DNA from: Candidatus Velamenicoccus archaeovorus
GTDB lineage: Bacteria; Omnitrophota; Gorgyraeia; Velamenicoccales; Velamenicoccaceae
Length of the DNA: 32,000 bases
Direction: 5' to 3'
Assembly (NCBI RefSeq): GCF_004102945.1
Contig: NZ_CP019384.1
Coordinates: 1,680,001-1,712,000, forward strand
The notes under the pieces were generated by a model. It saw only the letters and a program-made list of their open reading frames with translations, was not told where the DNA came from and did no database searches. Shown here one piece after another: positions 2,739-18,765 of this stretch. How positions within the stretch are numbered: position 1 is the stretch's first letter; every line of letters begins with the position of its first letter. A program made the position numbers and the translations under genes.

Positions 2739-4901
2739 CTAGGGGCGGCACGTATCGAGTTTTTGCCACAGGAGATCAGGAACAGGATAGCTGAGGCTGC
2801 GGGCCTTGCGGCAATGCGCTTCGGCCCGGCGGCAATCCCCGTTGAGGTAATAAGCAAAACAAATATTATTATGGACCAACCCTGAGCTCGGCGCGAGCGA
2901 AAGGGCCCGCTGGAAAACCGGGATCGCTTCCTGCGGCCGCCCCAGCGCGCAAAGAACGGAGCCGAGATTGGAGAGCGCGCCGATGTCCTCCGGCATCTTC
3001 TTGACGGCCTGACGGGCATAAGGCCATGCGGCCGCATACTCCTCTTTGGCCATCATCGCAGTCACCAGACCGTTATAAGCCGCGACATCCTGGGGCCCGG
3101 AAGCGACTGCCCGTTTGTAATGGGCGATCGCTTCGTCAAGTTTGCCCTGCTTGTAGAAAATCGCGGCCAGGGCCTCATGGGCCAGGCCGAAATCGGGATT
3201 CTCCTGCAAGGATCGGCGCAGGAAATCTTCGGCTTCGGGCAAGGCATTGCGGTTAACAGCCACAAGCGCAAGATTGTAGTATGCTTCGACGCGCGCCTCG
3301 GGATCCCTGGCGATGGATTCCCTGAGAAGCTCCTCGGCGCGGGCGGCATCGCCCAGCGAGGCATAGGCCACCGCCAGATTGATCTGATATCTATACCTCT
3401 TGTCCGGGTCTGCCTTGATGGCGGCCTCTGACACCTCGATGGCCTTGCGATATTGTCCTTCTGAAAGATAATAAAGGATGGCTAGGTTGGCGTTATAAAG
3501 CTGATAATATCCTTTATATAACGTATAGCGCTCGTCGATAATGCGCGACATCTCCGTGGAATCCATGAGCGCTTTTCTATATGACCCTTCATTGATGAAA
3601 GCCAGGCCCCGGTTATTGTAGGCGATGACCACCTGGGGATATTTTTTGAGGATGTCCGTCCAGAAGGTCACGCTTGTCTCCCAGACCCTGCAGCGCCTGT
3701 ATGTCGTCGTGGCGCAAAACAAGGCCACGGCCGCAAGCAAAACGACCAAAAAAACCCTTATTCCCGTCACTCGGCCGCCGATCTTGTCCCAAAGCCGGAA
3801 AAATCCCTCAGCCAGGATAAAGAAAATACCGATGGACGCCACATAGACAAACCGATCGGCCACTTTCGTATCCCCCATCGGAAGAAATTGCAGCAAAGGC
3901 AAAAGAGAAACGACAAAAAAGAGGCAGCCGAACACAACGGCGCGGCTGCGGCGGACCGCCAGGACGAAAACGGAAAAAAACGCCAAGGGCCAAAGATAAC
4001 TGCTGAGCCGATAGGCGGTCGCATAGAACACATCTGCCGGATAGTAGGCGGACAATCCCGCGGGCCAAAAGATCCGTCCCAGATAGAACGCAAGCGTGAA
4101 CAAAGGACCGTTGTGGAATCTCTCGGCGGCCGCCAGGCCGACGATATCGTGGCTGCCGCCATAAACGGAATAGAGCGCGACGAGGGCGAAAAACGCCGAC
4201 AGGACGAAAAAGGGAATCTTTTCAAGGAACATGTGGAGATCCGGCCGGCGGCGCAGGAAATAATCAAAACAAAAAAGAATGACCGGCAGGGTCACCGCCA
4301 TGGATTTGGACAATAACGAAAGAACGAAAAGCGCAAGGGTGAGCCAGAGATAACGGGACCGAAGCCCCCGCTGCAGATAATACACGTAACTGACAAGGGC
4401 CCCCAAATAGAAAAACGCATAGAGGACGTCCTTGCGCTCCGCCACCCACGCGACGCTCTCGGCGCGCAGGGGATGGATGCTGAACAAAAGCGCCACAAAA
4501 AACGCGAACGCGGCCCGGCCGCGCAGCAAGCGTACCAGCCAAAAGACCAAAAGGCCGTTCAAAAGATGCAAAAGCAAATTCGTCAAATGATAGCCGAAAG
4601 GCTCCAAATGCCCTATCTGGTAATTGACCAGGAAACTCAAAAGCGTCAACGGCTGGTAATTGCTGACATAATAAGACGTAAAGATCTTGTGCAGATTGGC
4701 CCCCGTCAAGGCCTTGATGGAAGAGTTATCCAGGACATAGACCTGGTCATCCCAGTTGATGAAACCGTTACGCAATGACGGCAGAAAAACCAAAAGGACA
4801 ATAACGGCAAGCAGGCAGGCAAGGATGAGCCTGGAATGTTCGGCATACCTGTCCAAAAAGGTCCTGCGGATGTCTTGTACGGATAACCTCGGCATGGACA
4901 T
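2739..4901 (-). CDS. Polytopic GT-C-type glycosyltransferase-like protein with C-terminal TPR repeats (TMTC/DUF1736-like architecture)
   Basis: The N-terminal ~430 aa has 10 or more hydrophobic segments and the block FINWDDQVYVLDN...YQPLTLLSF...GYHLTNLLLHLLNG, which I associate with TMTC-like GT-C proteins. The C-terminal ~300 aa is TPR (for example AYYNLALVAVNRNALPEAEDFLRRSLQENPDF). The track ORF extends to 4985, but codons 1-28 overlap a terminator hairpin (4972-5008), so I place the start at ATG 4901 (or 4895, MSMPRLSV). Confidence 0.65.
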   Translation of the reverse strand: MSMPRLSVQDIRRTFLDRYAEHSRLILACLLAVIVLLVFLPSLRNGFINWDDQVYVLDNSSIKALTGANLHKIFTSYYVSNYQPLTLLSFLVNYQIGHLEPFGYHLTNLLLHLLNGLLVFWLVRLLRGRAAFAFFVALLFSIHPLRAESVAWVAERKDVLYAFFYLGALVSYVYYLQRGLRSRYLWLTLALFVLSLLSKSMAVTLPVILFCFDYFLRRRPDLHMFLEKIPFFVLSAFFALVALYSVYGGSHDIVGLAAAERFHNGPLFTLAFYLGRIFWPAGLSAYYPADVFYATAYRLSSYLWPLAFFSVFVLAVRRSRAVVFGCLFFVVSLLPLLQFLPMGDTKVADRFVYVASIGIFFILAEGFFRLWDKIGGRVTGIRVFLVVLLAAVALFCATTTYRRCRVWETSVTFWTDILKKYPQVVIAYNNRGLAFINEGSYRKALMDSTEMSRIIDERYTLYKGYYQLYNANLAILYYLSEGQYRKAIEVSEAAIKADPDKRYRYQINLAVAYASLGDAARAEELLRESIARDPEARVEAYYNLALVAVNRNALPEAEDFLRRSLQENPDFGLAHEALAAIFYKQGKLDEAIAHYKRAVASGPQDVAAYNGLVTAMMAKEEYAAAWPYARQAVKKMPEDIGALSNLGSVLCALGRPQEAIPVFQRALSLAPSSGLVHNNICFAYYLNGDCRRAEAHCRKARSLSYPVPDLLWQKLDTCRP

Positions 4902-5963: not shown

Positions 5964-5997
5964 ACCTGACCTCCTTAATTCCGCCCCTGGCGGAATT

Positions 5998-6095
5998 AAC
6001 TCCGAGCGTATCTTGAAAATTTATGGCTGCCCGTCCGAGCTCTGCGAGGACTGGTCGCAGACATAAATTGTCAAGATGGTTACGCGAGGAGTAAC
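5998..6095. repeat. Long-hairpin module LH1
   Basis: AACTCCGAG-CGTATCTTGAAAATTTATGGCTGC...GCAGACATAAATTGTCAAGATGGTTACG-CGAGGAGTAAC. About 28 bp can pair, interrupted by a GA/AG tandem mismatch and a 3-4 nt bulge. Confidence 0.8.
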
Positions 6096-6289
6096 GTTTT
6101 TTCCTTTAACCTTCCGCCCCTGGCGGAATTAGACCCTTCGCTTATTTGGTATTGCGAAGGTCTACCCCCTTGTGGGGTTAACTCCTCCACCCGGCCCCAT
6201 CGGATGGCCGCACCTTGCCTCATTCGGACGGCAAGTGCGCCACCTTCTGTGGCGGTGTGCCGCTTTCTGCTTGCCTGCTATGGCAGGCA

Positions 6290-6425
6290 AAGCGTATCTT
6301 GAGAATTTATGGCTGCACCTGGCCCCATCCGTAGGGCCAGTGTTCCGCTTTCTGCGGAACCCGTCCGAGCTCTGCGAAGGCAGGGTGCAGAGAAACATTT
6401 TCAAGATGCTTACGCAAGGGGTGAC
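6290..6425. repeat. Long-hairpin module LH2 (equals LH1 plus a 44-nt two-hairpin insertion at 6317-6360)
   Basis: GCGTATCTTGAGAATTTATGGCTGC [insert] CCGTCCGAGCTCTGCGA...GCAGAGAAACATTTTCAAGATGCTTACGC AAGGGGTGAC is collinear with LH1 apart from the insertion and a few substitutions. Confidence 0.8.
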
Positions 6426-6608
6426 GTTTATTTCCTTAATTTTGCCTATACCGAGGCGCTTCTTCCTCGCAAAATTAGACCCTCCGCTATGTGGATTACC
6501 TGGCTCAATCGGATGAGCCAGTATGCCGTCCAGCAGGACGCACCCGCTTATCCTATTAAAGCGGGGTGCCGCTTTCTGCGGTATGCGGAGGCCTACCCTT
6601 TCTGGGTT

Positions 6609-6720
6609 AACTCCGAGCCTGCGAGAGAAATTTTACACCGGATGGCCGTCCTGGCCGGCTGCGCCAGGCCGACGGCCTAGCCCTGGTGGAAAATTTCCGA
6701 GCGCCCAGGCGAGGAGTAAC
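6609..6720. repeat. Long-hairpin module LH3 (apex is the 40-nt block also present at 15694-15733)
   Basis: AACTCCGAGCCTGCGAGAGAAATTTTACA-CCGGATGGCCGTCCTGGCCGGCTGCGCCAGGCCGACGGCC-TAGCCCTGGTGGAAAATTTCCGAGCGCCCAGGCGAGGAGTAAC. Confidence 0.8.
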
Positions 6721-6743
6721 ACTTATTCCTTAACTCCTCCGCC

Positions 6744-13632: not shown

Positions 13633-15591
13633 TTACTCTTCCTCGTGCTTGTGCCGGGGGTTCTGGGCGACGATCCCCTGGGAGATTTTTGCCGGGACTT
13701 CTTCGTAGGACGAAAAATGCATCGTGTAGCTCCCCCGGCCCCCTGTCATGGAACGCAGGTCCGTGGCGTAACGAAACATCTCGGCCAAGGGCACAAGGGC
13801 CTTGATGGTCTGGTTCTTGCCGCGCGCCTCAACGCCGAGGACCCGCCCTCGCCTGGAATTGAGGTCCGCGGGGATGGAGCCCATGCACTCCTCGGGAACG
13901 GTCACCTCGACCTCCATGATAGGCTCAAGCAGGATCGGCTGGGCATCCATGGCCGCCTTGCGAAACGCCAAGGCGCCGGCGATCTGAAAAGCCATATCGG
14001 AGGAATCTACGTCGTGATAGGAGCCGTCATAAGCGGTGGCGCGCACGCCCACCATGGGGAACGATGTGATCACCCCGCCCAGCATGGCGTTATGCACCCC
14101 TTTCTCGACGGAAGGGATAAAATTCCTCGGGATGGCGCCTCCGACGATCTTGTCGACGAACTCAAAATCCTTACCACGCTCCAGAGGCGCGACCTCCAGC
14201 CAAACGTCGCCATACTGGCCCCGGCCCCCGGATTGTTTTTTGTGCTTGCCCTGGGCCCTGGCCGCCTTCTTGATCGTCTCCTTATAGGGCACTTTGGGAG
14301 TGCCGATCTCAACCTCGACGTGATAACGCTCTTTGAGGCGCTTGACCATGACGTCGATATGCTGGTCCCCGAGGCCGGAAATGATCGTCTCCTTGGTCTG
14401 CGTATCGCGAGAGATCTTGAACGTCGGGTCTGAGGCGCAAAGCTTGGCGAGGGCCTCCGAGATCTTTTCTTCGTCCTGGCGGGTCTTGGGTTTGATGGAA
14501 GAAGAAAAGACCGGTTCCGGAAAGGCGATCGGCGCAAACACAACCTGCTGTTTCTCGTCGGCCAGGCTGTCGCCCAAAAGGGTCTCTTTAAGTTTGGACA
14601 CAGCCACAATGTCGCCGCATGAAGCCGACGCGACCGGCCGCTGTTCTTTGCCCTGCAAAAGAATCAACTGGCCGATCCTCTCCTTTGTGCCGCGCGTCAC
14701 ATTATAAAAACCGGTATTGCCTGCCAGGGTGCCTGAAAAAATCCGCAAGATCGTCAATTGGCCGACAAAGGGGTCTACGACGGATTTAAACACGAAGGCC
14801 GCGAAGGGCGCATCCTCGGCAAGCTTGAGCTCGCGCGGCTGGTCCGTCTGGGCGTCGGTCACGGCGACGGCCGGCCGTTCCAGCGGCGAAGGCAGATAAT
14901 CCACAATAAAATCCAAAAGCTCCTTGGTGCCCTTGTCCGTCAGGGCCGAGCCTGCGATGATAGGATAAAGTTTTCCCTTCACGATAGCGTCTTTAAGGGC
15001 TTTTTTGAACTCTTCTTCCTTGATCTCCTTGCCCTCAAGGTAGCGCTCCAGGAGTTCGTCATTGGTCTCGGCGATCGCCTCCTTCAATTCTGCCGAGACA
15101 GGAAAGGAAACGACGGCCGCAGCCTTGGAAAACCTCTCTTTGATCTCCCGGACAACTTCGTCCAGATTGACGTTCTCCTTATCGGTCTTATTGATAAAGA
15201 TCAAGCGCGACAGCTTCAATTCTTCTAAGGCATCCCATGCCCGTTCGGTGCCGACCTCAATGCCTCCGGTCGCGTCTATGACCAGGATGCCGGCATCGAC
15301 CGCGCGCACGGCCCCGAGCATGTCTGCGGCAAAATCCGCATAACCGGGCGTGTCCACCATCTGGACAGAGTGGTTACGCCAGGACAAATGGCACAGGCTG
15401 GAATTGATAGAATTCTTGCGCTGAATCTCATCGGCGTTATAGTCGCTCGTTGTATTGCCTTCGGCGATCGCCCCCTTGCGGGAAACGGCACCGGCGGCGA
15501 AAAGAAGGGCTTCTACCAACGTGGTCTTGCCCGCTTGGGCGTGAGATACAAAAACAACAGTTCTTTTGGCATCAGGCTTGACGTTGTCCAT
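13633..15591 (-). CDS. Elongation factor G paralogue (EF-G-like translational GTPase with an atypical G3 motif)
   Basis: 652 aa. G1 is SHAQAGKTT, G3 is DTPGYADF (canonical DTPGHVDF) and G4 is NKTD. Domains II-V are recognisable, including the domain IV tip SYHDVDSSDMAFQIAG. SD GGGGAG lies 7 nt before ATG 15591. Confidence 0.85.
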   Translation of the reverse strand: MDNVKPDAKRTVVFVSHAQAGKTTLVEALLFAAGAVSRKGAIAEGNTTSDYNADEIQRKNSINSSLCHLSWRNHSVQMVDTPGYADFAADMLGAVRAVDAGILVIDATGGIEVGTERAWDALEELKLSRLIFINKTDKENVNLDEVVREIKERFSKAAAVVSFPVSAELKEAIAETNDELLERYLEGKEIKEEEFKKALKDAIVKGKLYPIIAGSALTDKGTKELLDFIVDYLPSPLERPAVAVTDAQTDQPRELKLAEDAPFAAFVFKSVVDPFVGQLTILRIFSGTLAGNTGFYNVTRGTKERIGQLILLQGKEQRPVASASCGDIVAVSKLKETLLGDSLADEKQQVVFAPIAFPEPVFSSSIKPKTRQDEEKISEALAKLCASDPTFKISRDTQTKETIISGLGDQHIDVMVKRLKERYHVEVEIGTPKVPYKETIKKAARAQGKHKKQSGGRGQYGDVWLEVAPLERGKDFEFVDKIVGGAIPRNFIPSVEKGVHNAMLGGVITSFPMVGVRATAYDGSYHDVDSSDMAFQIAGALAFRKAAMDAQPILLEPIMEVEVTVPEECMGSIPADLNSRRGRVLGVEARGKNQTIKALVPLAEMFRYATDLRSMTGGRGSYTMHFSSYEEVPAKISQGIVAQNPRHKHEEE

Positions 15592-15604: not shown

Positions 15605-15775
15605 TTGATTTTGCCACGAGTGGGTGAGTTTACCTTGCAAAATCAACTCCAAGCTTGCTCGGTCTGCTGAAACAGCAGACCAGGGAAATTTTTCCGGATG
15701 GCCGTCCTGGCCGGCTGCGCCAGGCCGACGGCCTTCCCTGGAAAAATTTACAAGCGCATAAGCAAGGAGTCAAAC
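15605..15775. repeat. Repeat modules in the EF-G-paralogue leader: short hairpin (15605-15646) plus long hairpin LH4 (15645-15775)
   Basis: TTGATTTTGC-N22-GCAAAATCAA, then AACTCCAAG...GGTCTGCTGAAACAGCAGACC...GGGAAATTTTT-[40-nt block 15694-15733]-...GGAAAAATTT...CAAGGAGTCAAAC. Confidence 0.8.
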
Positions 15776-16028: not shown

Positions 16029-17252
16029 TTATTCTACATAGGTGTAAATCTTACCTTTATAATTACGCAATACGTGTTTGCCCTTATCCTGCGAAATCAG
16101 GTAGCTGGGGCCCACGGGGATCTTGCCGCCGCCTCCCGGAGCATCCACCACGTAGGTCGGGACGGCATAGCCAGAGGTGAAACCGCGCAGCTTTTCAATG
16201 ATATTGATGCCTACCGCCACGGGCGTGCGGAAATGCGCCGTGCCCTTGACCGGGTCGCATTGATAAATGTAATACGGCCGCACGCGCACCTTCAAGAGCT
16301 CATGCATGAGCTTTCTCATGATGTAGGGTTTGTCGTTGATGCCTTTCAGAAGCACAGTCTGACTGCCCAAAGGAATGCCCGCATCAGCCAGCATGTCCAA
16401 GGCTGCCTTGCAACGCCGCGAAACCTCCCGCGGATGGTTAAAATGGATGCTGATCCAAAGCGGTGAATATTTTTTGAGCATCGCAATAAGGGATTCAGTG
16501 ATCCTGTGGGGGAGAGTGACCGGGACGCGTGTGCCCAGGCGGACAAATTCCACATGCGGTATGCTCTTGATCTTCCTGATGATCTCTTCAAGCTCGCTAT
16601 CTTCAAGCATCAGGGGATCGCCTCCTGAGATCAAGACATCGCGGATCTTCTTGTTGGAACGGATATAATCCGCGGCCGCGTCGAGCGCTTTGGCATTCAT
16701 GGCATGCGATACCTTCTCGCCCACGAGGCGCCTGCGCGTGCAATGGCGGCAATACATGGCGCACTTCTCCGTGCTCAACAAAAGGACCCTGTCGGGATAC
16801 CTGTGGACCAAGCCGCTGGCCGGAGAATCACGGTCTTCGGCGCACGGATCGACGAATTCGTTAGCGCCAAACTGGAATTCTTGTTTCAAAGGGACGGCCT
16901 GCCTGCGGATGGGACACTCGGGATCGTCAGGGTCCATCAAGGTCGTCCAATAAGGTGTGATGGCCATCGACAAACGGCCGTTGGACTTTTTGATACCCTC
17001 CTCTTCTTCCGGCGTCAGGATAAGAACCTTGGAGATCGCCTCAAGGCTGTGGATACGGTTGTCGATCTGCCAATGCCAATCTTCCCACTGCTCTTCAGGA
17101 ACGTCCTTCCAAAGCGCGACCTTGCGATAGTCGCCGATACAGCCGCGGCGCACCAGCGTCTGCGGTGACGCATGTTCCAATGTCTGGGCTTGGCTTGCCA
17201 GTTGACCCTCCTTGATTTTGCCTATATTGAAGTATTTTCCCTGCAAAATCAA
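16029..17252 (-). CDS. kamA: KamA-family radical-SAM aminomutase (lysine 2,3-aminomutase-like)
   Basis: CAMYCRHCTRRR (the CxxxCxxC cluster), GGDPL, SLRMAITPY-like RLSMAITPYW, and PTYVVDAPGGGGKIP. The N-terminus aligns with clostridial KamA from about residue 40 (YRKVALWKDVPEEQWEDWHWQ). The track start (TTG 17252) lies inside a repeat hairpin. The real start is uncertain: CTG 17201 just after SD GGAGGG, or a downstream TTG or GTG. Confidence 0.88.
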   Translation of the reverse strand: MILQGKYFNIGKIKEGQLASQAQTLEHASPQTLVRRGCIGDYRKVALWKDVPEEQWEDWHWQIDNRIHSLEAISKVLILTPEEEEGIKKSNGRLSMAITPYWTTLMDPDDPECPIRRQAVPLKQEFQFGANEFVDPCAEDRDSPASGLVHRYPDRVLLLSTEKCAMYCRHCTRRRLVGEKVSHAMNAKALDAAADYIRSNKKIRDVLISGGDPLMLEDSELEEIIRKIKSIPHVEFVRLGTRVPVTLPHRITESLIAMLKKYSPLWISIHFNHPREVSRRCKAALDMLADAGIPLGSQTVLLKGINDKPYIMRKLMHELLKVRVRPYYIYQCDPVKGTAHFRTPVAVGINIIEKLRGFTSGYAVPTYVVDAPGGGGKIPVGPSYLISQDKGKHVLRNYKGKIYTYVE

Positions 17253-17491
17253 CCCCGAGCTTACGCAGAAAATTTATGCCGACGCGTCGTGGCATAAATT
17301 TTCAAGTGCTTAAGCGAGGGGTGAAAATGCATTCCTTAATCCTGCCTCTGGCAGGATTAACTCCGAGTGTAGCTGAAAAATTTGTGGATGCCCGCCGAGA
17401 CCTGGCCCAGGCCAAAGGCCGGGCCGAGACGAGGCTGGGTGCATCCAGAAATTTCAGCTGTTTACACGAGGAGTCAAGTCGATTCCTTAAT
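17212..17491. repeat. Repeat modules between the ATP-grasp gene and kamA: short hairpin, LH5, short hairpin, LH6, TTCCTTAAT box
   Basis: TTGATTTTGC-N21-GCAAAATCAA (17212-17252). LH5 at 17251-17326 (AACCCCGAG...AGAAAATTTATGCC...GGCATAAATTTTC...CGAGGGGTGAAA). TTAATCCTGCC-TCT-GGCAGGATTAA (17336-17360). LH6 at 17359-17478 (AACTCCGAGTGTAGCTGAAAAATTTGTGGATGC...GCATCCAGAAATTTCAGCTGTTTACACGAGGAGTCAAG). TTCCTTAAT at 17332-17340 and 17483-17491. Confidence 0.8.
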
Positions 17492-17492
17492 T

Positions 17493-18497
17493 TTACCTAT
17501 CCTTCTCCTGCCCTGTGCGTTCCAGGGCTGTGTCGATAATCTTCAATATCAACCCCTGATACGTCATACCTTCCGCCTGCGCAATCAGCGGAAAGACGTC
17601 GGCGCTCGACAGCGACGGCAACGGGTTCAATTCAAGGACATAGGGCCGGCCGGATTCGTCGACGCGAAAATCCACGCGGCCGAAATCCAGACAGCCGACA
17701 GCCCTGTAAGTCCGGACCGCCATATCGCAGAGCTCACGGCGCAAGGCCTCATCCACTTTCGGGGGACACACATAGACGACATCATCGCCTTCCAGGCGGC
17801 GCGACGTATAAATCAAGTCTCCAAGTTGCAGGTGCCCGGTGATCTGGATCTGCACGGGCATCAGGGCACGCGGCTCCTTGTTGCCGATCACCAGGACCGT
17901 AAACTCCCCACCCCGGATAAACTCCTCGACAAGCGCCGGCTGCCTGTAAAGCCGAGACAGCTCCCTCACCTGGCGCTCCAAGGCCGTCCTGTCGAAAACG
18001 ATAGAATCTTCGGAAACCCCCTTGGACGAACCCTCATGGCAAGGCTTGACGATAAAAGGGAATCGCATCGAATCCAGATTATTAAAATCATATTGCTCGT
18101 CTGCCAGGAAAAATTTCGGCGTCGAGACGCCTTCGCTTAAAAAAACCTTCTTCGCCATCGCCTTGTCGAGGGTCAACCCCATCGTCAAACCGTCGGAACC
18201 CACATAGGGAACACCAAGGATATCAAGAACCACCGGCACCTGTGATTCGCGGTTCCTGTTGCCCAACCCTTCACAAATATTAAGAACGATGTCGATACTC
18301 GCGAGCTCGCGGCTGCGGCCCAAAAGATTCGCGGCATTGCCGATCTTGACAACCTTGTGCCCGCCGGACTCCAGGGCCTCTACGACTTCCTGTATCGTGG
18401 CTTCATGATCCAATTCGGCGAAATGGTCCGACGGCACGTCAGCCACGGCAGGATGGTCGCTTTTCAGGTCATATGTAAAACCGATTGTTTTTCCCAT
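17493..18497 (-). CDS. D-alanine--D-alanine ligase-family ATP-grasp enzyme (short, divergent; substrate unknown)
   Basis: 334 aa. The sequence runs MGKTIGFTYDLKSDH...LGVPYVGS...DKAMAKKVF...FPFIVKPCHEGSSKGV...VEEFIRGGEFTVLVIG...GRVDFRVDESGRPYVLELNPLPSL, with the Ddl/ATP-grasp motif order. Confidence 0.8.
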   Translation of the reverse strand: MGKTIGFTYDLKSDHPAVADVPSDHFAELDHEATIQEVVEALESGGHKVVKIGNAANLLGRSRELASIDIVLNICEGLGNRNRESQVPVVLDILGVPYVGSDGLTMGLTLDKAMAKKVFLSEGVSTPKFFLADEQYDFNNLDSMRFPFIVKPCHEGSSKGVSEDSIVFDRTALERQVRELSRLYRQPALVEEFIRGGEFTVLVIGNKEPRALMPVQIQITGHLQLGDLIYTSRRLEGDDVVYVCPPKVDEALRRELCDMAVRTYRAVGCLDFGRVDFRVDESGRPYVLELNPLPSLSSADVFPLIAQAEGMTYQGLILKIIDTALERTGQEKDR

Positions 18498-18530
18498 GAA
18501 TTCCCGCTCTTTCGACGGGGGCTAAATAAT

Positions 18531-18560
18531 AAAAAAAGGGACCCCGCTGTCGAGAGTCCC
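18531..18560 (-). terminator. Intrinsic terminator-like hairpin in the ATP-grasp gene leader (attenuator or sRNA 3' end)
   Basis: Minus strand GGGACTCT-cgacagc-GGGGTCCC followed by TTTTTTT. The two non-Watson-Crick positions are G-U on the minus strand but C-A on the plus strand, which indicates minus-strand function. It sits 33 nt upstream of ATG 18497 and ~55 nt downstream of a candidate promoter. Confidence 0.6.
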
Positions 18561-18620
18561 TTAACACATTAACTTTTTGATTTGAATCTCCTTTGATTTA
18601 AAAATTTTATCTATAAACAA

Positions 18621-18649
18621 AAATTATCACAATAAATTACCCTTGTCAA
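18621..18649 (-). promoter_or_regulatory. Sigma70-like promoter upstream of the ATP-grasp/kamA operon
   Basis: Minus strand TTGACA (18649..18644), 17-nt spacer, TAATTT (18626..18621), within the only strongly AT-rich stretch of the spacer. Confidence 0.45.
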
Positions 18650-18765
18650 GATGTTTTGAGCGGCTTGAGCCGATTTTTTTCGCCCTTTTTCCCGTCGGGA
18701 AAAAAATTTTCGTCTCACGGCGCGGAAAATATCCTTGCCGGAAAAACAATTCGCTAAAATTTTCC

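Follow-up and report, generated by a model that had tools for sequence, protein, structure and literature searches.

Hairpins in the ATP-grasp/kamA spacer of Candidatus Velamenicoccus archaeovorus as probable members of a lineage-restricted family of nested palindromic repeats

The spacer between an ATP-grasp gene and a kamA-like gene of Candidatus Velamenicoccus archaeovorus (phylum Omnitrophota) was analysed within a stretch of 32,000 nucleotides, called here the window (contig NZ_CP019384.1, positions 1,680,001 to 1,712,000). A first-pass annotation of this DNA had described the spacer (17253-17492) as two long hairpins, LH5 and LH6, and had seen in their compensatory differences from copies at 6 kb the signature of selection on structure. 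[quoted passage not shown] They are not a conserved regulator of the ATP-grasp/kamA operon. A locus-specific RNA signal is not supported, since the spacer is absent in a relative with 67% identity, rebuilt in another with 89% identity and indel-polymorphic at 99.2% identity, and since its hairpins belong to a dispersed family found before dozens of unrelated genes.

Repeat units in the spacer and in the lineage

All the genes around the spacer are carried by the minus strand. The parts of the locus are the following (window coordinates):

17493-18497, minus strand: ATP-grasp gene, D-Ala-D-Ala-ligase-like, stop codon at 17493-17495
17483-17490, minus strand: distal pseudo-ribosome-binding site TTCCTTAA (UUAAGGAA on the mRNA), right behind the ATP-grasp stop codon
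17357-17476, minus strand: LH6, imperfect long hairpin of subtype B with an extra apical module of ~50 nt (nhmmer E = 2.6e-17)
17336-17360, minus strand: short hairpin SH, perfect over 11 bp, TTAA-TCCTGCC-TCT-GGCAGGA-TTAA
17332-17339, minus strand: pseudo-ribosome-binding site UUAAGGAA, 3' of SH on the mRNA
17249-17324, minus strand: LH5, minimal 76-nt long hairpin of subtype D, CCCC-GA-GCTTA ... TAAGC-GA-GGGG (E = 1e-14)
17212-17252, minus strand: long-loop short hairpin TTGATTTTGC-N21-GCAAAATCAA
17199-17213, minus strand: native kamA ribosome-binding site GGAGGG with a conserved in-frame CTG (17201-17199)
16029-17252, minus strand: kamA-like open reading frame (ORF; lysine-2,3-aminomutase), the likely gene running from 16029 to ~17201
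13633-15591, minus strand: gene of an elongation factor G (EF-G) paralog

Read 5' to 3' on the mRNA, the ATP-grasp stop codon is followed by UUAAGGAA, LH6, SH, a second UUAAGGAA, LH5, the long-loop short hairpin and GGAGGG. The pseudo-ribosome-binding site at 17483-17490 is the distal boundary of the array. The long-loop hairpin, overlooked in the first-pass annotation, adjoins the ribosome-binding site of kamA on the mRNA (AAUCAAGGAGGG), so the true spacer extends to ~17202; the same module recurs 5' of the EF-G paralog, at 15605-15646.

The two long hairpins are real. The minimum-free-energy structure returns the annotated pairings, and the 240-nt spacer folds at -116.8 kcal/mol on the plus strand (z = -9.8) and at -109.5 kcal/mol on the minus strand (z = -8.5), energies that 0/200 shuffles matched. 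A consensus scan of the gene strand detected no promoter-like or terminator-like site in the spacer, in agreement with the first reading. The comparison of LH6 with LH1, a copy of the 6-kb array, was also correct in most respects: the C:G to T:A double change (GAGCGTA/TACGCGAGG versus GAGTGTA/TACACGAGG) is present, and the A/T boxes stand in register, as do the tandem GA/AG mismatch and a bulge of 4 nt (TGGT/TGTT on the plus strand, ACCA/AACA on the mRNA strand). On the plus strand of LH6 the tandem G.A mismatches appear as CTCC-GA-GTGTA ... TACAC-GA-GGAG. However, the inner stems, described as entirely different, differ at only 2/8 positions (ATGGCTGC versus GTGGATGC). Each contains one mismatch (7/8 paired), and the two copies are set apart by a single true compensatory change, the repair of one mismatch and the loss of one pair.

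The window contains six long hairpins at three intergenic sites, in one orientation throughout. Besides the spacer described above, the copies are located as follows:

5964-6743, minus strand: array of 780 nt upstream of a thioredoxin-like gene, composed of SH, LH1, a TTAG...CTA module, LH2 and LH3
5996-6094, minus strand: LH1, subtype A
6359-6422, minus strand: 3' half of LH2, whose 5' arm is broken up by small hairpins
6607-6719, minus strand: LH3, subtype C
15605-15772, minus strand: long-loop short hairpin (15605-15646) and LH4 (15643-15772, subtype D)

The unit of the family consists of an imperfect long hairpin of 75-130 nt and a perfect short hairpin of 25 nt. The long hairpin is wholly an imperfect inverted repeat, with the outer arms ACTCC-GA-GYGTA and TACRC-GA-GGAGT, and four subtypes can be distinguished: A (GCGTATCTTG..., as in LH1), B (GTGTAGCTGAAA..., as in LH6), C (LH3) and D (LH4 and LH5). 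Copies of one subtype can be 97, 98 or 99 nt long, and such indels do not preserve a reading frame, which indicates that the element is non-coding. TTAA or a close variant of it (TCAA, TTGA or TTAG) delimits the modules of many copies, flanking short as well as long hairpins. AAGGA is likewise repeated on either side of units, and the stem of the short hairpin itself includes TTAA.

To search for relatives, an exact pattern was built from the outer arms of the long hairpin. It matched Candidatus Omnitrophica UBA6210, two metagenome-assembled genomes (MAGs) labelled 'Planctomycetia', one contig binned as Smithella and ~20 JGI metagenome contigs; lake metagenomes are among the sources of the family. 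Chance matches of the pattern without a hairpin were set aside (L005, L006, L012, L018, L025, L031, L035, L038, L039, L041 and L043). Hidden Markov models of the subtypes, used with nhmmer, gave 80 hits in 388 kb, including 19 hits in 48 kb from UBA6210, whose proteins are 78-96% identical to those of the window. In the same 388 kb no hit was obtained in the relative with 67% identity or in the chance-match loci. True members occur in L017 (Smithella sp. PtaU1.Bin162) and in L003, L004, L009, L010 and L015 ('uncultured Planctomycetia'); such labels could mean either that Omnitrophota contigs were mis-binned or mislabelled, or that the repeat has spread horizontally. With respect to described elements, the arrays of the window gave no Rfam hit at E <= 1 and seven related loci gave none at E <= 0.1, no match to the family was found among the viral contigs, plasmids and phages of IMG/VR, PLSDB and INPHARED, and in the literature searched, repeats of this type were not found described for Omnitrophota.

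A number of public contigs break off within or beside arrays (L002, L004, L015, L026, L048 and L049), and a partial ATP-grasp protein, P0013, is cut off as well. The repeats appear to fragment the assemblies of this lineage, a practical matter for metagenomics.

Turnover, covariation and strand asymmetry

Synteny around the ATP-grasp/kamA operon is conserved but the content of the spacer is not. In the relative whose ATP-grasp protein is 67% identical (L050/L051) the spacer is empty and reduced to TAA-TTAAAAAAGGAGGG; the window has a spacer of 240-290 nt, and that of the 89% relative (L046/L047) reaches ~620 nt, in which at least three long hairpins can be recognised. The LH6 ortholog of the latter (L046 7206-7270) keeps the same flank and lacks the apical module of ~50 nt. 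Even a public contig with 99.2% identity (L001) carries 18 extra nucleotides (CTGGCCAGCTTCGCTGGC), which form a mini-hairpin in the apex of LH5, at window position 17283. The kamA junction, ..AA|GGAGGGTCA(A/G)CTGG, is common to empty and filled orthologous sites.

Other loci show the same dynamics. For instance, a small gene beside a PCC-domain gene is preceded in the window by an empty site with the native ribosome-binding site GAGGGGG, while in UBA6210 an array of ~680 nt supplies UUAAGGAG to the same gene. In the array orthologous to that of the thioredoxin-like gene (L014 5108-5560), subtype B replaces subtype A. Two arrays of L009, which come from one MAG, are nearly identical over ~290 nt and their identity stops right after TTAAGGAG; blocks of this size are copied between loci of one genome. 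L019 and L024 differ by one unit, and such changes in repeat number are consistent with recombination between copies. A chimeric long hairpin with poor pairing, composed of a subtype-A 5' arm and a subtype-B 3' arm (L029 64-161), looks like direct evidence of recombination between subtypes.

The modules are also nested, since an identical module of 41 nt (6638-6678 and 15694-15734, minus strand, 100% identity; also L014 6757-6797) sits inside LH3 and LH4, whose outer stems are different. Copies of the LH2 type carry extra small hairpins at the positions of internal loops. These small hairpins, of 20-27 nt, have variable stems and recurrent loops (CATCGGAT-like, and TTTCT/TTCCT on the plus strand), and occur in the window (6140-6330 and 6490-6600), in L014 (5255-5320 and 6265-6440) and in L009 (3290-3530). 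Like the TTAG..CTA modules that accompany them, they are inserted into long hairpins at the internal loops, and they may be separate mini-modules with dynamics of their own. A second, unrelated element is a classical, strain-polymorphic MITE of 277 bp found in L001 (12628-12904, equivalent to window ~15887), with terminal inverted repeats of ~25 bp (GCTGAGCCTTTATTAAATAATGAGC ... GCTTATTATTTAATAAAGGTTCAGC). It lies directly after the -10 box of the promoter of the EF-G paralog and is absent from the window.

Pairing in the hairpins is strongly constrained. In 24 distinct copies of the long hairpin 98.6% of the cells pair, against 29-47% in slid controls, and 9/32 pairs carry double-sided changes (51 cells), a level that 0/500 shuffles reached. 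The short hairpin occurs in seven stem variants among 28 instances, all of them with 7/7 Watson-Crick pairs, and 5/11 of its pairs are double-changed. The part of the earlier claim that concerned the pairing itself therefore stands. A locus-specific RNA signal with many independent compensations is not supported; as the copies are paralogous repeats, the counted cells are not independent events. For instance, the C:G to T:A change between LH1 and LH6 marks a subfamily (it separates 14 sequences from 10, and goes together with another double change at columns 16/81), and is thus one event copied many times. The compensatory changes noticed in the first reading would then be differences between subfamilies of a repeat, kept paired by the demands of its own propagation or maintenance. 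This case calls for caution of a general kind, as paralogous palindromic DNA repeats can yield strong covariation statistics, which alone are no proof of selection on RNA.

Compensation in the stems does not show the G.U signature of a transcribed RNA. Only 2 single-sided (G.U) changes stand against 51 double-sided ones in the long hairpin, and none against 13 in the short hairpin. Internal G.U pairs number 90/2245 on the mRNA strand and 117/2281 on the opposite (GA) strand, so this wobble-pair test for the functional strand gave no signal either way. Mismatches, on the contrary, are markedly asymmetric. On the strand antisense to the genes, 151 mismatch cells are purine-purine (GA/AG 136, AA 10, GG 5) and 2 are pyrimidine-pyrimidine (CT/TC), and the conserved mismatches occupy four sites, spaced ~10-12 nt along the 5' arm (alignment columns 9-10, 21-22, 31-32 and 42-43). 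The outermost GA site was fixed by the search pattern; the inner GA sites and the copies derived from nhmmer are unaffected by it. The GA strand is the more stable one in 32/37 copies with RNA parameters and in 35/37 with DNA parameters. Covariation almost without G.U intermediates, G.U pairs that are not biased to the mRNA, and purine mismatches on the antisense strand argue against RNA-level selection on the mRNA. A k-turn was also considered for the G.A pairs and rejected, as the 4-nt bulge is 5 bp away and not adjacent.

Placement before genes and competing explanations

The typical layout on the mRNA is a long hairpin, UUAA, a short hairpin, UUAAGGAGG, 4-9 nt and the start codon. By an automatic scan and inspection of its misses, ~38 arrays were found to end in a ribosome-binding site and start codon in sense orientation, and two more are cut by contig ends. 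Units can be single or arrayed and their polarity towards the gene is always the same. The downstream genes are unrelated housekeeping genes, and include those for EF-Ts, L25, S18, desulfoferrodoxin, an M48 protease, a GMP-synthase-like protein, glutamate dehydrogenase, a thiamine pyrophosphate (TPP) enzyme of the pyruvate:ferredoxin-oxidoreductase type, a phosphorylase and GroEL, the copy of the latter being located within the groES-groEL spacer. Among the ~26 genes of the window most have a weak Shine-Dalgarno sequence or none, and the consensus UUAAGGAGG is found mainly at the genes that bear repeat cassettes.

Since no promoter or terminator separates cassette and gene, the cassettes are presumably co-transcribed, in 5' untranslated regions (UTRs) and in intercistronic spacers. 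In the consensus scan, a promoter and a terminator-like leader precede the ATP-grasp gene, a strong terminator lies 3' of kamA (16007-15980), and an 11/12 promoter (15925-15897, TTGACG-17-TATAAT) lies 5' of the EF-G paralog. From these positions, the ATP-grasp/kamA hairpins are intercistronic, and the elements at 15605-15772, downstream of the latter promoter, lie in the 5' UTR of the EF-G paralog, LH4 being a 5'-UTR element. Two functions of the element itself were discarded: a promoter, as on inspection the TTGACA-like hexamers of some arms lack a properly spaced -10 box, and a mini-ORF after the pseudo-ribosome-binding site, as GTG is present in only some copies and is not conserved.

Some observations concern the flanking genes. 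At the usual spacing from GGAGGG, the kamA-like gene lacks an ATG, GTG or TTG. An in-frame CTG lies 4 nt past this site (17199-17201), a TTG at 17175-17177 is a further candidate, and public gene calls conflict (405, 383, 382 and 363 aa). Because the 67% relative keeps the CTG (L050 6985-6987), this codon may be the start; translation probably begins at CTG 17201 or at TTG 17177, rather than at TTG 17252. Upstream of the ATP-grasp gene (18526-18650, minus strand) there is a TTGACA-type promoter and a leader. The leader contains the ribosome-binding site AAAGGAG, what may be a mini-ORF (ATG TGT TAA), and a hairpin resembling a terminator, GGGACTCTCGACAGCGGGGTCCC with a T-run behind it. This arrangement is kept in L046 (5880-5960), and may act as an attenuator or riboswitch-like control of the operon. 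A CIRCE-like inverted repeat, TTAGCACTC-N9-GAGTGCTAA, precedes groES in a related metagenome contig (L045 ~430-460, minus orientation), and L009 898-962 gave a sub-threshold Leu_leader match (E = 7.9e-5). The sole Rfam hit in the window, to the DnaX frameshift element (4252-4306, plus strand; 27.7 bits versus a gathering threshold of 35, E = 0.028), is also sub-threshold; it lies on the non-coding strand opposite a 748-aa gene and is probably due to chance.

The family shows what characterizes MITEs: short non-coding elements with terminal inverted repeats, many dispersed copies, and presence/absence polymorphism at orthologous sites. If the hairpins belong to such a family, their formation would be required for the propagation or maintenance of the element itself, likely as a DNA hairpin on the strand with the purine mismatches, which some enzyme would recognise. 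TTAA-like tetranucleotides bound many modules, which suggests a TTAA target beside extended UAAGGAGG ribosome-binding sites. Insertions would survive only where a ribosome-binding site that faces the gene is preserved or provided, and such a filter would explain the fixed orientation. The hairpins would be at least tolerated in the mRNA and may incidentally stabilise or punctuate transcripts. A processing or stabilising role of the RNA is possible; as a processing site and 5' stabiliser, the hairpins would fit their position and polarity, and this role could coexist with mobility.

Different points weigh against this interpretation as mobile repeats. In the 388 kb, neither a transposase nor an autonomous partner came to light, no ORF was seen between two inverted arms, and no clean pair of empty and filled sites differing by a single unit with an exact target-site duplication was found. 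The TTAA (or AAGGA) flanks could belong to the stems or to the ribosome-binding site, and homologous recombination and gene conversion alone could give the observed dynamics. The invariance of the outer GA in the pattern-derived copies is partly circular, because the search pattern fixed it. In addition, the near-complete association with translation starts would fit a beneficial role at the RNA level as well, and some orthologous sites are occupied despite a swap of subtype, such as that of the thioredoxin-like gene, with subtype A in the window and subtype B in UBA6210 and L026.

These last two points lead to the alternative that survives best, one that we hold as possible though tentative. 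In this explanation, which extends the first-pass annotation to all members of the family, the cassette would act in cis as an RNA module of polycistronic or leader transcripts and would spread by helping expression. A double-strand-specific RNase, of which RNase III is an example, would process the transcript at the long hairpin, and after cleavage the short hairpin would shield the 5' end of the downstream mRNA and present a strong ribosome-binding site. The polarity and the position directly 5' of the ribosome-binding site, fixed in ~38 arrays, agree with it, as do the spacer without transcription signals, the location of LH4 in a 5' UTR downstream of a promoter, the consensus UUAAGGAGG at cassette-bearing genes set against weak sites at most others, and the high expression of many targets (groEL, EF-Ts, S18, L25, the TPP enzyme and glutamate dehydrogenase). 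Stems that co-vary and sites that remain occupied with another subtype agree with it as well. However, presence or absence of the cassette differs among close relatives, even at the same gene, loop sequences are not conserved, G.U pairs are almost absent with no enrichment on the mRNA strand, and that strand is the less stable one, its conserved mismatches being destabilising pyrimidine-pyrimidine pairs. Of the features of an operon-specific RNA, covariation of the helices is present, but neither conservation at orthologous sites nor a G.U signature of the transcribed strand was found.

A combination of both functions, which reads one sequence in two ways on its two strands, seems unlikely. 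The cassettes would be a lineage-wide portable module for translation initiation and operon punctuation, domesticated or mutualistic, which would provide highly expressed genes with a consensus ribosome-binding site sheltered by a 5' hairpin, and with a processing hairpin besides, in a genome whose other genes mostly have weak sites. The purine-purine sites would then be the surface by which a mobilising enzyme recognises single-stranded DNA.

More doubtful still is the proposal that the functional form is the strand antisense to the genes, whose hairpin has three or four tandem purine-purine sites, mostly G.A, at intervals of about one helical turn. It would work either as single-stranded DNA that a strand-specific enzyme (such as an HUH/Y1 transposase or a recombinase) binds or cuts, or in the form of an antisense RNA. 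The near-exclusive occurrence of purine-purine mismatches on that strand (151 cells versus 2), their spacing of ~10-12 nt on the 5' arm, its greater stability under both RNA and DNA parameters, and the purely Watson-Crick compensation expected for DNA pairing speak for it. However, no enzyme gene associated with the elements was seen. The replication strand is not inferable either, since all the genes lie on one strand and both GC skew and four-fold-site GC skew are confounded, the latter being dominated by codon usage. An antisense RNA is unlikely because the consensus scan found no promoter-like site on that strand next to the elements, and the DNA version overlaps with the interpretation as mobile repeats and is no real competitor to it.

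Finally, integron attC-like recombination sites between gene cassettes, which the hairpins resemble as imperfect palindromes of ~60-130 nt with strand-asymmetric mismatches between co-oriented genes (a resemblance only), are rejected, being already contradicted by a context of syntenic housekeeping genes (groES-groEL, ribosomal proteins and EF-Ts), by multi-hairpin arrays with no intervening gene, by the absence on inspection of RYYYAAC/GTTRRRY core sites, and by the lack of an integrase gene nearby.

Comparison with known repeat systems

Among described repeats, the REP/BIME elements of enterobacteria and pseudomonads are similar in being extragenic multi-copy palindromes in mosaic arrays, co-transcribed with their neighbours, whose stems are kept by compensatory change and which vary fast between strains. 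REP units have 20-40 nt and a GTAG or CGTC tag (PMC3733652). In REP/BIME arrays the units are usually 3' of genes and alternate in orientation, whereas in the present family their orientation is constant and a ribosome-binding site follows directly on their 3' side. The long units are also larger here (75-130 nt), the short hairpin of 25 nt has TTAA ends, there is no tag, and modules are nested within the apices and internal loops of other modules.

The Correia elements of Neisseria and the ERIC/IRU elements of enterobacteria share with the family their nature of imperfect palindromes of ~100-150 bp, transcribed in intergenic regions as long RNA hairpins and polymorphic in their insertion. RNase III cleaves Correia hairpins, and ERIC affects mRNA stability via RNase E (reviewed in PMC10969869). 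There is no sequence similarity between these elements and the present family. Correia elements duplicate TA and insert in both orientations, in contrast to the TTAA-like flanks and fixed polarity observed here, and the gene-proximal ribosome-binding site, the tandem arrays and the periodic purine-purine mismatches set the family apart from both.

Chunjie, a MITE found in Geobacter uraniireducens, is, in the account of it given in a review, an element whose insertion leaves operon structure intact and which has many full or partial intergenic copies (Chen et al. 2008, via PMC10969869). It is thus alike as a MITE-type element within an operon with many intergenic copies. However, it measures 178-235 bp, has terminal inverted repeats of the classical kind as well as direct repeats, comes from a different phylum, and shows neither nested modular hairpins nor a strict placement beside ribosome-binding sites.

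In palindrome-associated elements derived from IS200/IS605 and in integron attC sites, the asymmetry that mismatches or bulges give to an imperfect hairpin makes one DNA strand the substrate, and orientation is biased. This likeness serves as a lead only; no TnpA, RAYT or IntI gene and no core-site motif was found in the present material.

No described family matches the repeats; the closest, REP/BIME, Correia/ERIC and Chunjie, each share only some of their features. Each feature is known from some repeat family, and the following combination is not known to have been described: placement at ribosome-binding sites with fixed polarity, nested modules, purely Watson-Crick compensation, and periodic purine-purine mismatches on one strand. 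In annotations, no regulator of the ATP-grasp/kamA operon should be entered at these hairpins, and with them a well-defined repeat family from the uncultured phylum Omnitrophota is added to those known.

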